Assembly: GCA_951406725.2 (NCBI GenBank)
Contig: OX597820.1
Location: forward strand, 53,506,001 to 53,570,000
Source of the DNA: Octopus vulgaris
Taxonomy: Eukaryota
Direction of reading: 5' to 3'
Length of the DNA stretch: 64,000 nucleotides
Below are positions 2,647 to 35,022 of this stretch, in pieces (position 1 is the stretch's first letter; every line of letters starts with the position of its first letter). A program made the translations under genes and the position numbers. The notes under the pieces were generated by a model, which searched no databases, was not told the DNA's origin, and saw nothing but the letters and a program-made list of their open reading frames with translations.

Positions 2647-2800
2647 ATATATATGAAACGGTCGTGAATTCTGGTACTTGACTGAGGAAAGAAGGCCAAG
2701 AATGACCCGTATGTTTTGTTCCATATATATATATATATATATATGGAATATATATATATATATATATATATATGGAATATATATATATATATATATATAT

Positions 2801-3008
2801 ATGGAACAAAAACATAATAGGAGTCAATAAAACATTCGGATAGATAGACGATACAAAGATTATTAGGACGGGTCATTCGAAGTTTTCTATCTTCAGTCAA
2901 GAACCAGATTATCCTCCCAAGTTCGGCTGATTATTCTTAGATTATTCTTAAATTAGAGAAAAACCACTATTATGCAATTCAAACAATAATCGACATAATG
3001 TATCGTCT
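2801..3008 (-). mobile_element. Penelope-like non-autonomous element (family P1) with inverted termini
   Basis: Core is the reverse complement of ~3538-3690; bounded by GACGATACA...TGTATCGTC; sits between (TA)n and (TC)n. Confidence 0.55.
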
Positions 3009-3131
3009 CTCTCTCTCTCTCTCTCTCTCTCTCTCTCTCTCTCTCTCTCTCTCTCTCTCTCTCTCTCTCTCTCTCTCTCTCTCTCTCTCTCTCTCTCTCT
3101 CTCTACATATATATATATATATATATGGAGT

Positions 3132-3470
3132 CGTCGCAACTCATTTCTACAGCTGAGTGAACTGGAGCAACGTGAAATAAAGTGTCTTGCTCAAGAACAC
3201 AACACGCAGCCCGGTCCGGGATTGGAGCTCACAACCTCACGAGCGTAAGCTCGACGCTCTAACCACTGAGCCACGAGTTGCGACGTCACAGGTGCCAAGC
3301 TGTATCGGCCCTTGCCTTTCCCTTGGACAACATCGGTGACGTGGAGAGGGGAGGCCGGTATGCATGGGCGACTGCTGGTCTTCCATAAAACAACCTTGCC
3401 CAGACTTGTGCCTCAGAGGGTAACTCTCTAGGTGCAAACCCATGGTCAGTGTCTGACCGAAGGGGGTCAC
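3132..3470. mobile_element. SINE family D copy with an inverted 5' half
   Basis: 3132-3275 is the reverse complement of the tRNA-head half and 3275-3470 is the sense 3' half. Colinear copies exist at 51240-51545 and 59860-60143. Confidence 0.85.
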
Positions 3471-3483
3471 CATGTCACCATAT

Positions 3484-3768
3484 ATGGAATAGAAACACAA
3501 TAGAAGACAATAAAACATTCGGATAGATAGACGATACATTATGTCTATTATTGTTTGAATTGCAGAATAGTGGTTTTTCTCTAATTTAAGTATTATCTAA
3601 GAATAATCAGCCGAACTTGCGAGGATAATCTGGTTCTTGACTGAAGATAGAAAACTTCGAATGACCCGTCCTAGTTTTCTTTGTATCATCTATCTGGATG
3701 TTTTGTTGTCCCATTTTGTATCACCTAGTTGTCCGGATGCTTTGCGTTCTCGTCCCATTTTGTATTCA
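3484..3768 (+). mobile_element. Penelope-like non-autonomous element (family P1), second copy
   Basis: Inverted termini (AAAACATTCGGATAGATAGACGATACA / TGTATCATCTATCTGGATGTTTT); contains CCGAAC-N24-CTGAAGA; ends in (TA)n. Confidence 0.55.
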
Positions 3769-3867
3769 TATATATATATATATATGTATATATATATATC
3801 AGCATGGCCACAGCTCGTGAGCTGAAACTAGATGTTAATGAAAATGAAAAAAATTTTTTTTTTTAAA

Positions 3868-4262
3868 TAGGCGCAGGAGTGGCTGTGTGGTAAGTAGCTT
3901 GCTAACCAACCACATGGTTCCGGGTTCAGTCCCACTGCGTGGCATCTTGGGCAAGTGTCTTCTGGTATAGCCCCGGGCCGACCAATGCCTTGTGAGTGGA
4001 TTTGGTAGACGGAAACTGAAAGAAGCCTGTCGTATATATGTATATATATATATGTGTGTCTGTGTTTGTCTCCCTAGCATTGCTTGACAACCGATGCTGG
4101 TGTGTTTACGTCCCCGTCACTTAGCGGTTCGGCAAAAGAGATCGATAGAATAAGTACTGGGCTTACAAAGAATAAGTGTTGGGGTCGATTTGCTCGACTA
4201 AAGGCGGTGCTCCAGCATGGCCGCAGTCAAAATGACTGAAACAAGTAAAAGAGTAAAAGAGT
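3868..4262 (+). mobile_element. SINE family B, full length (~400 bp, internal TA/TG microsatellite)
   Basis: A-box TGGCTGTGTGG, B-box GGTTCAGTCCC, (GTAAAAGA)n tail; about 10 further full or partial copies in the window. Confidence 0.9.
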
Positions 4263-4291
4263 ATATATATATCATGTATGTACATATATGT

Positions 4292-31625: not shown

Positions 31626-32433
31626 GACAAGTGGTGTGAGTCAGGATTGCATATACACTAAGCTTGTACTCATTTTATTTGAGTAGATTGGAGAAATCTG
31701 AAATGAAATGCCTTGCTCAAAGACATAACAGTCAGGGAAATTGAATAAACGTTTTTATGTTAGTGTGTCTAACAACCATAAACACTAGGCCATACAATAA
31801 ATAAATAGCCATAAATTGCTGGAAAAACACAAATGCCAATAATAAAAAATCCTAAAAAATAGAATGCAATCACATAGTGCTTCAAGGCAAACGAAATAAC
31901 TTCGAATATTGTTACCAGAACAAATCCTAAAACTAAATAGTTAGTGAATAGGTCCATTTACTCAAGTGCTAATTACATCAGTCTCTCTTAATTTCAACCA
32001 GAGACATAGGGACAAAAATTTCGTGAGAGCATAGATTCGATCAGTTCATGATTGGTAGTCTGAACATTGATCTTGCAGTGATGAAAACTAAAGATGTCAA
32101 CGACAGAATATGTTCATAGACTAAAATGAGTCAACTGAGAAGTTTAACCTACACGCATGTATAGATGTGAAACGTGCGTTTATAAATGCACGAATATATA
32201 TATATGTGTATCCACGCTCGAGCACCCATGATTGTGTTTTCGTTATTGTACGAGTACACGGGAATACGTGCGTCAAGACATTTATAAGTATTAATTAATG
32301 AATATGTACGTGTGGTGATTTCGCATCTCTCTTAATCTTTATCACACAGTCTTTCTCTCAGTATACATACATACATACATACATACATACATACATACAT
32401 ACATATATATATATATATATATATATATATATA

Positions 32434-32734
32434 TCACCGTGACCGACTAGGCTATCAGATGTTGCTACACATCGCTGGTCACAATGCGCTTCGCATTGTT
32501 TTAGCCTTCAAATGACGCCACCCCGCTGGCTAAGCGAGCAGGCCAACAGAAGAAAGAGTGAGAGAAAGTTGTGGTGAAAGAGTACAGCAGGGTTCGCCAC
32601 CACCCCCTGCTGAAGCCTCGTGGAACTTTAGGTGTTTTCGCTCAATAAACACTCACAACGCCCGATCTGGGAATCGAAATCGCGATCCTCCGACCGCGAG
32701 TCCGCTGCCCTAACCACTGGGCCATTGCGCCTCC
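32434..32734 (-). mobile_element. SINE family C, tail a, full length
   Basis: Reverse complement of 4292-4574, with an intact tRNA head. Confidence 0.92.
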
Positions 32735-32851
32735 ACACACACACACACACACACACACACATACATATATATATATATATATATATATATATATATATAT
32801 ATATATATATGTATGTATGTATGTATATGTGTGTGTGTGTGGGTGTATACT

Positions 32852-33350
32852 GAGAAACGACCCTTCATCAGTTGTCGGCTGTATATCTACTCTACATTTC
32901 GTGGATTCAACTACACTATGATTTTTCAAAGACAGTTTTTTAGAATTTATAGATTGTCGAAGTTGAGAACAAAAACAGGTTAATGGCGACATACAAGGAA
33001 ACCGAACGAATACAAACATTGGGGGTCGTTAGAGCAGAATGGTTTGAAAATATTGAACGCTGGGAGAAATATTTTCTTTGAAAAGAGAAAAGATAGGAGA
33101 GAAAAAAGTCCAGTACTTTGAACGCCCGTGCAGGAAAATAAAGATGTTCACGTGAGGAAAGGAAAGATGGATGATGGTCACGTGTGAGCAACGAGAGAGA
33201 GAAAAAGAGAAAGAGAGGGACAGAGAAAGAAGGAGGAGGAGAAAAATAGAATTACAGATGTATGGATGAAAAATCAGTACAGAGTAGAGTTGCATTAAAA
33301 AGGTGAAGATAAACTGACTTGGTAACGGATGCATGGCATTCAATTATAAA
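32852..33350 (-). mobile_element. Penelope-like element family P2
   Basis: 32852-32935 is the inverted homologue of 33505-33591; contains CGAAA-N25-CTGATGA on the minus strand. Confidence 0.5.
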
Positions 33351-33473
33351 ATAATAAATAATATATATACATATATAGTGAGTGAAAGTTGTGGTCAAAG
33401 AGTCAGAAGAAGTGAATATATATATATATATATATATATATATATATATATATATATATATATATATATCCCG

Positions 33474-33678
33474 TATGGGTACAGGACGTCTTCACATGTG
33501 TAAGCAACTGTGTTTGAAGACTCAAAATGTCGTTGAATGCTCGAAATGACGAATAGATAGACAGCTGACAACTGATGAAGGGTCGTTTCTCTGTGCTTAC
33601 TTCTCCTGTTTTCCATTTTTTCTCTCATTGTTTACGCATTTCACGTTGTTTACACAGTTGGTGACGTCCAGTACCCAT
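33474..33678 (+). mobile_element. Penelope-like element family P2 with inverted termini
   Basis: ATGGGTACAGGACGTC ... GACGTCCAGTACCCAT; CTGATGA at 33572-33578; flanked by (TA)n. Confidence 0.55.
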
Positions 33679-34649
33679 ATATTATTTACCACTAATATTA
33701 TTATCATTATATATATATATGTGTGTATATATATATATATATATATATATATATATATACTTGAGGAGAATATATAGTTAGATAGATAAACTGATAAATA
33801 CATAGATGGATAGATAGACTGATAGATAGATACAAGGTAGATAGATAGATAGATAGATAGATAGATAGATAGATAGATAGATAGATAGATAGATAGATAG
33901 ATAGATAGATAGATAGATAGATAGATAGATAGATAGATAGATAGATAGATATGCATTTGCGTTACCTGTATTTTCACATATATAATTTTGTGAATTTGTT
34001 ATATACATGATGATGATTATGGTGATGGTGATGATGACGATGAGGAGGAGGAGGAAGGAGGAGGAAGGAGGAGGAGGAGGAGGAGGAGGACATGACAACA
34101 ATAATAGCAAATACAGATTATAGACAAATACCACACATTTATTCTCTTATTTCTCTAACTCATTCTATATCCCTCAGCAAACACCTCATTGCGGCTCCTT
34201 TGTAAAGTCAATAAAAGAAAATGGTTTTGAATCTCTGTCACCTGGCATATTAACACGTATATTCCGCTTAACATTACTTGAATGGCGACTTACTACAATC
34301 TCTCCTTTAGCTAAATTTTTTCCTCGTAAGTACATGTACGTGTGTGAAGTTATGTGTATTTCAAAGTGTAAATTCATAAATATTTGCATATTTGCCTGTG
34401 TCAGAGATTTTGTGTACTTTTCTATAATTGATGTACATTTATACATATTCCTTGATATACCTTATCTTCAATACATTTATAGTCATATGCATGCGTTAAG
34501 TACAAACATACATACATCGTGCACGTATAAGTACATAGCTTCATATAATCACTCAGACGAACACATGTATTTGCACATGTATACGTCCACACACACACAT
34601 ATATATGCATGTATGTGTATATATATATGTATATATATATTGTCAATCA

Positions 34650-35022
34650 TAAAAGGTTAAAATTAATTAATTATTAATTAATTTTACCAAGTAGTGTTCA
34701 GTATGTAAAAAGACCATTTATGGTATATTTAAAACATATATGTATATATATGTGTATATATATGTATATATATATAATAAATTAATAAATAAAATAAAAC
34801 ATATGCATATATACATACATATATGTACGTACCTACCTCTACATGTATATATACATGTATATATGGGTACAGGACATAAAAAAAAACGTCGAACACAATG
34901 AGAAACGAAAACACAAAACCAAGGAAATGGATATTTCTTAAACAACGAAAAAATAGAGTACAGGACATACAATACAAGGAAAATTCCCCTTCTTCAGTCG
35001 CCCTTGTTTCATCTAATCTGCG
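34650..35022 (-). mobile_element. Penelope-like element family P3
   Basis: Shares ATGGGTACAGGAC with P2; minus strand CTGAAGAAGGGGAATTTTCC; truncated by (TA)n. Confidence 0.5.

Follow-up and report, generated by a model that had tools for sequence, protein, structure and literature searches.

Predicted Site-GAAA-CUGANGA hammerheads at likely decayed Penelope-like element ends in Octopus vulgaris

Box pairs and the elements that carry them

We analysed 64,000 nucleotides (nt) of the Octopus vulgaris genome (the window; contig OX597820.1 of assembly GCA_951406725.2, forward-strand positions 53,506,001 to 53,570,000), in which a first-pass annotation had noticed two hammerhead-like boxes recurring in permuted order, as GAAA-N23-25-CUGANGA. 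The boxes lie in short repeated elements that resemble the 3' ends of Penelope-like elements (PLEs), and these elements and the RNA fold predicted for them are described here. All five sites of that annotation were present, one of them a single base to the right of where it had been placed. A pattern scan located GAAA-23-CTGAGGA at 2655-2688 (+), and GAAA-25-CTGATGA at 33543-33578 (+) and 32900-32865 (-). The variant GAAC-24-CTGAAGA lies at 3613-3647 (+) and 2924-2890 (-), and a further CTGAAGA at 34997-34991 (-) has (TA)n 26 nt upstream. The CUGANGA box is present in all six sites.

Within the window, the narrow pattern GAAA-N23-25-CTGANGA was observed 3 times against 0.34 expected, and none of 100 shuffles reached 3. 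When GAAH was allowed at the same spacing, 6 were observed against 0.97 expected (0/100 shuffles), and a wide box pattern gave 9 against 3.07 (0/100). These values overstate the independence of the sites because the shuffles ignore that the copies are repeats; the real lineages number about three, or two to three. The annotation had called the repeat families unrelated-looking. This holds only in part: the sites whose CUGANGA box begins at 2682, 2896 and 3641 belong to one family (A, 80-90% identical), and those at 33572 and 32871 to another (B, 84%). The site at 34997 (C) aligned weakly to 33572 (nhmmer E 0.2), the last 14 bases, GTCCWGTACCCATA, being common to both. Searches of the window with blastn and nhmmer gave no convincing copies beyond the six, and the exact 25-nt family B motif had no match in GTDB genomes.

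Each element is 75-290 nt long and non-coding. Five of the six terminate in CCA or TCA followed by (TA)n, while that of 32871 terminates in TCAGTATAC before an (AC)n run. The family A element at 3484..3768 (+) is PLE-like in layout, with an inverted tail (3484-3538), a body and a 3' end that runs into (TA)n. The second, 2803..3008 (-), has the same junction between inverted tail and body and ends in TGTTCCA(TA)n. Between the two, 3486-3538 is 90.6% identical to 2803-2855, and 3532-3719 matches 3005-2812. The body of both full copies starts about 6 nt before the strand termed a below; the unit therefore keeps just the ribozyme domain and the tail, and the ribozyme domain would accordingly seem to be needed in cis. 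A divergent family A element lies at 2650..2723 (+), where (TA)n cuts just before GAAA (2655-2658), CUGAGGA occupies 2682-2688 and the upstream strands are missing. A gapped alignment suggests that the GAAA at 2655 may instead be decayed inverted tail. The three family A elements lie within 1.1 kb (2650-3770) in alternating orientation, with (TA)n, (TC)n and other interspersed repeats between them.

The first family B element, 33474..33679 (+), sits in (TA)n and has 35-nt terminal inverted repeats (33474-33508/33645-33679, 83% identical); the second copy lies at 32845..32937 (-). An inverted 5' copy of the 3' tail is seen in two elements (33474-33508 versus 33645-33679; 3486-3538 versus 2803-2855). 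The family C element, 34862..35022 (-), has its CUGAAGA at 34997-34991, is cut by (TA)n 26 nt upstream of it, has a hairpin directly after the core and ends in GTCCTGTACCCATA. In the copies at 2682 and 34997 the truncation falls near the GAA block rather than at the predicted cleavage site. Since they are truncated and lack the upstream strands, they are uninformative for the fold.

Near the second family B copy, an 8-nt strand at 33023..33030 (-) is the exact complement of the bases after its CUGAUGA (p=0.0015 against 2000 dinucleotide shuffles), and is a candidate either for an 'a' strand or for the tail box of a neighbouring PLE end. The stretch around it, approximately 32980-33030 (-), resembles the family A tail box GAATGACCC and could belong to an adjacent PLE end, partly in tandem. 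Short elements at 42640-42747 (-) and 30747-30759 end like the 32871 copy (GTTTCTCAGTATA) but carry no CUGANGA.

According to Craig et al. 2021 (PMC8557442), an inverted, 5'-truncated copy and a tail of 30-40 bp are part of the PLE layout, (TA)n is the target of the PLE clade named Naiad, and the Naiads of cephalopods are remnants. On the basis of architecture, the window elements are likely to be decayed, 5'-truncated 3' ends of (TA)n-targeting PLEs, and probably of Naiads. They share with Naiads the insertion into (TA)n, the inverted 5' tail copy and an Octopus host in which Naiads survive only as remnants; the Octopus Naiads (Naiad_Obim and Naiad_Ovul) also end in GAAA-23-CUGAUGA, like the window sites in box order and spacing. 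Naiads encode an N-terminal GIY-YIG and a C-terminal reverse transcriptase in one open reading frame (ORF), unlike the window elements, which have no ORF. It may be noted that (TA)n insertion is not clade-specific, because Hydra_Obim has it too, and that the inverted tail copy is common to all PLEs.

Pairing predicted from Naiad 3' ends

Positions are given in standard hammerhead numbering (G10.1, A15.1, H17), which agrees with the hammerhead papers cited; S, G and C denote the Site, GAAA and CUGANGA blocks. Fold orders were compared in the window families by keeping the two boxes in place and shuffling all other columns. In this first, unconstrained test S-G-C was the best order for family B (p=0.03), whereas the absence of a direct stem II held family A to p=0.44. 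The order G-C-S was not above shuffles (B pair p=0.17).

The published Naiad consensi (File S5 of PMC8557442) were therein viewed at CTGATGA occurrences 13-62 of 62, CTGAGGA 25 of 25, CTGACGA 23 of 23 and CTGAAGA 1-30 of 43, motifs split across lines escaping this view, and their pairings were read by eye. In Naiad_Obim and Naiad_Ovul, the upstream sequence AUGGU-A-CUGCCC finds its partners in ACCAU, which follows GAA, and in GGGCAG, which precedes CUGAUGA. In block order these ends agree with the non-circular type-SGC described by Eckert et al. 2023 (PMC10085705). The strand before GAA and the strand after CUGANGA do not pair together. Each of these stem II strands pairs instead with its own upstream strand (b, which always begins with G, and a, respectively), with a hairpin H between the two upstream strands and an extra helix, c/c'. 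This layout, a-H-b-c-S-G-C, was found in at least 11 of the 54 Naiad consensi, in 8 distinct sequence versions: Bfor, Amil, Aacu, Anas, Obim, Ovul, Esco, together with four further passages near parts 9, 12, 12 and 19 of the file. They come from ctenophore, coral, octopus, squid and other hosts. Their letters differ in every stem while complementarity is kept, and the spacers from GAAA to CUGA in the 8 versions are 18, 19, 20, 21, 22, 23, 35 and about 80 nt. The blemishes are a 2-bp stem I in Bfor and single mismatches in Aacu, Esco and Obim. The other 36 consensi either showed no fit or were not among the places viewed; the 3' ends of Naiad_Adux and Naiad-1_Skow, taken whole, contain no CUGANGA.

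Two further designs were seen in the same file. One Naiad end near part 16 has the S-G-C order, with a spacer of 35 nt, GAA preceded by a hairpin and an I-stem of 9 bp, and represents a second peripheral design. Six 3' ends near parts 13-16, the place of the nematode families, among them Naiad-2_Nbra and Naiad-3_Nbra, fit the rare type C-S-G by eye, with complementarity in stems I to III as well as in the I-stem and GUC at the site. In the accessible portion of Eckert et al. 2023 (PMC10085705), only two C-S-G sequences are described, both metagenomic.

The register for the window test was taken from the Naiads, with H17 restricted to 13-17 nt before GAA. In family A, complementary strands are seen in the order a-H-b-c-[stem III, UH, stem I]-b'-GAA-stem III'-c'-stem I'-CUGANGA-a', a geometry that matches the Naiad layout. 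The predicted four-way-junction S-G-C hammerhead of the first full copy, A3641, spans 3544..3651 (+). Its upstream strands are a (3544-3547), hairpin H (3548-3570), b (3572-3575) and c (3577-3582), followed by the stem III 5' strand (3593-3596), H17 at 3597 (AUC|) and the stem I 5' strand (3598-3604). Then come b' (3609-3612), GAAC (3613-3616), c' (3620-3625), the stem I 3' strand (3633-3639), CUGAAGA (3641-3647) and a' (3648-3651). The corresponding prediction in the second copy, A2896, spans 2886..2993 (-), with a at 2993-2990, H at 2989-2967, b at 2965-2962, c at 2960-2955, H17 at 2940, GAAC at 2924-2921 and CUGAAGA at 2896-2890.

Counted from CUGANGA, H17 lies at -44 in family A (AUC in both copies) and GAA at -28, with a 7-bp stem I in which nucleotide 2.1 is unpaired; the core gave p=0.005 for the pair and p=0.0013 for A2896. 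The periphery (H -94 to -70, b -69, c -64) is contiguous as in Naiads, and gave p=0.010 for the pair and 0.010 and 0.003 singly, the latter for A2896. When 2500 random unmasked window positions were scored in the same way, none reached the total of A2896 and 3 reached that of A3641; 1659 reached that of the truncated A2682, i.e. there is no fit for that copy. Direct stem II scored -1.0 in family A, both strands pairing upstream instead. No I-stem, a pairing of the strand 5' of stem I with the strand 3' of stem II, is evident, and the strand concerned pairs with the upstream c. In all, 90.6% of 64 cells pair, compared with 36-59% for slid partners, although this control favours structure because the fold was derived from these same sequences.

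Family B fits the core only, not the full four-way geometry (p ~0.01-0.05). The predicted S-G-C core of B33572 spans 33508..33583 (+): c 33508-33513, stem III 5' strand 33522-33525, H17 33526, stem I 5' strand 33528-33532, GAAA 33543-33546, c' 33559-33564 and CUGAUGA 33572-33578, with a possible direct stem II between 33539-33542 and 33580-33583. In B32871 (-), H17 is at 32917, GAAA at 32900-32897 and CUGAUGA at 32871-32865. H17 lies at -46 and GAA at -29 (core pair p=0.013; B32871 core p=0.04). Of the 2500 random positions, 15 reached B33572. The paired cells amount to 81.6% of 38 against 29-50% for slid partners. At the Naiad register NUH is present in B32871, as AUA, and absent in B33572. 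Likewise, the A15.1-U16.1 pair is found in B32871, and U16.1 is A in B33572. Direct stem II pairs at 4/4 positions in 33572 and 2/4 in 32871, and the I-stem amounts to a 5-bp candidate at most, in B32871. The periphery of B33572 gave p=0.017 but overlaps its own inverted tail, and hence was not counted as support.

Weighing the fold, its rivals and its possible role

We consider it quite likely that the sites are decayed 3' ends of PLEs, probably Naiads, with a 3' untranslated region (UTR) hammerhead predicted to fold in the order Site-GAAA-CUGANGA. The idea of a permuted hammerhead-like RNA with GAAA first, put forward in the first-pass annotation, agrees with this order; its third option of an undescribed structured RNA is approached by the S-G-C reading. 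No stems had been drawn in it because their partner strands are placed as far as ~100 nt upstream of CUGANGA and form crossing, pseudoknotted pairings.

Several results weigh against this proposal. No compensatory change was found between the two window copies of either family (0/32 pairs in A, 0/19 in B), and since only 5 of 123 columns differ between the two A copies, these amount to roughly a single observation. C15.1 stands opposite U16.1 in both A copies, and both B copies have a purine-A mismatch at 1.1-2.1. The score of B32871 was reached by 931 of the 2500 random positions, and a four-way periphery for this copy was rejected (p=0.92). In B33572, GAAAUGAC can pair with GUCGUUUC instead, forming a competing hairpin. 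The scoring weights and the option of an unpaired 2.1 were chosen after seeing the data, and 2 of 11 control sites reached a core p of about 0.05 or less (0.027, 0.051). The nested minimum free energy (MFE) was no better than shuffles for any copy in 6/6 regions (z -1.1 to +2.0); a missing MFE signal is expected for decayed pseudoknots, and equally if there is no structure. Rfam gave no match at gathering score across the window, and among 150 of 369 matches listed at E<=10 almost all were microRNA models on microsatellites, with no hammerhead. The pairings in the Naiads were judged by eye rather than by computation.

No PLE domain was detected in the 144 frames scanned (8 + 136; 102 shorter frames of 242 left out), and no PLE ORF is attached. 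In the accessible part of the supplement of PMC8557442, five of six window motifs searched were absent and the sixth occurred at two places unrelated to the ribozyme. Consequently, the clade assignment rests on geometry, and the window elements represent families other than the published Octopus Naiads, since no searched motif is common with their ribozyme region.

Absence of any structured RNA, the boxes recurring through PLE kinship and the stems being chance pairing in AU-rich sequence with G-U allowed, would account for the two to three lineages, the lack of covariation in the window, the missing MFE signal and a fold scored with author-set weights. We regard it as improbable. Scored in the same way, family A comes out above 2497-2500 of 2500 real sites in the window, and its helices are contiguous and placed at the offsets of unrelated Naiads, which by eye vary in every stem yet stay complementary. 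Somewhat less improbable, though still unlikely, is an explanation for families B and C (not A) as type I PLE min-hammerheads whose downstream GAAA block has been lost, the GAAA on the upstream side being incidental and kept by pairing with the strand after CUGAUGA. Both have after CUGANGA the extra base and G typical of PLE min-hammerheads (PMC4209133), the family C hairpin comes right after the core, the strongest local stem of B33572 is GAAAUGAC/GUCGUUUC, and the B32871 periphery fails. Yet there is no GAAA after the core in B or C, the GAAA spacing is within the Naiad range, and both B copies independently put H17 at -46 and c at -64, the c offset being that of family A.

The annotation had preferred a type II (G-S-C) hammerhead, in which the 23-25-nt spacer would hold both stem III and stem I. 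The order of GAAA then CUGANGA agrees with type II, and a 4-bp direct stem II is possible in B33572, but stems III and I and the site did not fit in the spacer better than shuffles (p=0.57 for B, 0.87 for A, 0.31 for 2682) and family A lacks direct stem II, which leaves this reading very improbable. Hardly credible is its other suggestion, a junction at which the GAAA of one type I hammerhead meets the CUGANGA of a second one in tandem. Hammerheads in tandem are known from PLEs and retrozymes (PMC4209133; 10.64898/2026.07.22.740005), but no second core flanks the sites: there is no CUGANGA upstream of these GAAA blocks and no GAAA block downstream of these cores, and the elements are dispersed, not tandem.

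For the preferred S-G-C fold the following course may be envisaged. The b/b' helix would take the place of stem II and receive its G10.1 from upstream; a four-way junction would join the core to a/a', hairpin H and b/b', and c/c' would extend stem III. Folding would be possible only once CUGANGA and a' had been transcribed. The cut would fall 15-16 nt before GAA, at a distance of ~45 nt from CUGANGA on its upstream side, leaving products clamped by several helices. In this way, read-through or tandem PLE transcripts could be cut to unit-length element RNA with the 3' tail kept attached, a processing role that follows the proposal of Cervera and de la Pena for PLE hammerheads (PMC4209133). A PLE has been shown to begin reverse transcription inside its own RNA (Frangieh et al., PMC11167929), and one may speculate that keeping the tail attached matters for this internal start. 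The window copies themselves are probably inactive relics, judging by C at A15.1 in family A and the broken pairs in family B.

It also seems rather likely that Naiad 3' UTRs carry a set of active non-circularly permuted hammerheads, namely the four-way-junction S-G-C form, including window family A, and the C-S-G form in nematodes. The accessible text of Craig et al. (PMC8557442) reports no canonical hammerhead in Naiads and eight with a 'half core' whose second box is on either side, gives no fold, and flags Naiad_Ovul and Naiad_Esco as HHR_half_core. If true, the proposal would overturn the view of Naiads as lacking hammerheads, together with the case for regarding the ribozyme as something that PLEs can do without or that parasitises them. 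Animal genomes would be seen for the first time to encode non-circular RNA permutations, and non-circularly permuted ribozymes, so far met in anonymous metatranscriptome contigs, would gain named animal genomes as a source, where many copies could serve for covariation. It would also follow that the two stem II strands of a hammerhead need not pair with each other, adding a topology, with stem II split and a four-way junction, that escapes both Rfam and the current descriptors. A literature search, with most subscription papers and Repbase outside its scope, listed no paper in which permuted hammerheads are reported from PLEs or from an animal genome; related variants could be described in Lunse et al. 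2017. In their accessible portions, a 2026 preprint on retrozymes and PLEs (10.64898/2026.07.22.740005) has type I motifs only and PMC13725137 only cites Eckert.

The remaining window and comparison with known hammerheads

A gene for a heparan sulfate 3-O-sulfotransferase has its last coding exon at 17228-17896 (+), the only host exon recognised in the window. The segment 17276-17893 is 99% identical, across 69% of its length, to heparan sulfate 3-O-sulfotransferase 3B1 of O. bimaculoides, and it matches Pfam Sulfotransfer_1. The rest of the window is microsatellite and interspersed repeat. A broken frame at 21330-22054 (+), with more pieces at ~22870-23080, resembles the zinc-knuckle and restriction-like endonuclease end of a non-LTR (long terminal repeat) retrotransposon and lies beside (TAA)n; its only Pfam match was weak and below threshold. 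The frame may be R4/Dong-like. A fragment of a LINE (long interspersed nuclear element) reverse transcriptase lies at 52720-53601 (-) (RVT_1 E 0.0015, below the curated cut-off).

The window also holds a canonical type I PLE min-hammerhead at 22344-22389 (+), GACAC-CUGAUGA-A-stem II (one mismatch)-GAAA-CGU-U-GUGUU, in which stem III is palindromic. It is a single copy, has no Rfam match, was absent from the first-pass annotation and is plainly unlike the six sites. Compared with type I PLE min-hammerheads (PMC4209133), the six sites are alike in the core boxes and in lying near a PLE 3' end, and families B and C share the extra base and G. They differ in that the type I order CUGANGA-GAAA-site, the palindromic stem III and dimer folding are not seen at any of the six. 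Type II (G-S-C; PMC10085705) has GAAA before CUGANGA as here, but its site and both hairpins lie between the boxes, which is not the case at these sites.

The closest resemblance is to type-SGC (HRIMA-1 and variants; Eckert et al. 2023, PMC10085705), which cleaves in vitro and, according to the accessible part of that paper, is known from metatranscriptomes only and found in no genome of a known organism; a word search of the accessible SGC data gave 0 for Eukaryota and 0 for Mollusca. In common with type-SGC are the block order Site, GAAA, CUGAnGA, the pseudoknotted stems I and III, and the short linker from the stem I 5' strand to the strand before GAA. Unlike type-SGC, the sites described here have an animal genomic retroelement setting. 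Family A is further set apart because direct stem II fails in it: there, and in at least 11 Naiads, both stem II strands pair upstream around a hairpin, and c/c' extends stem III.

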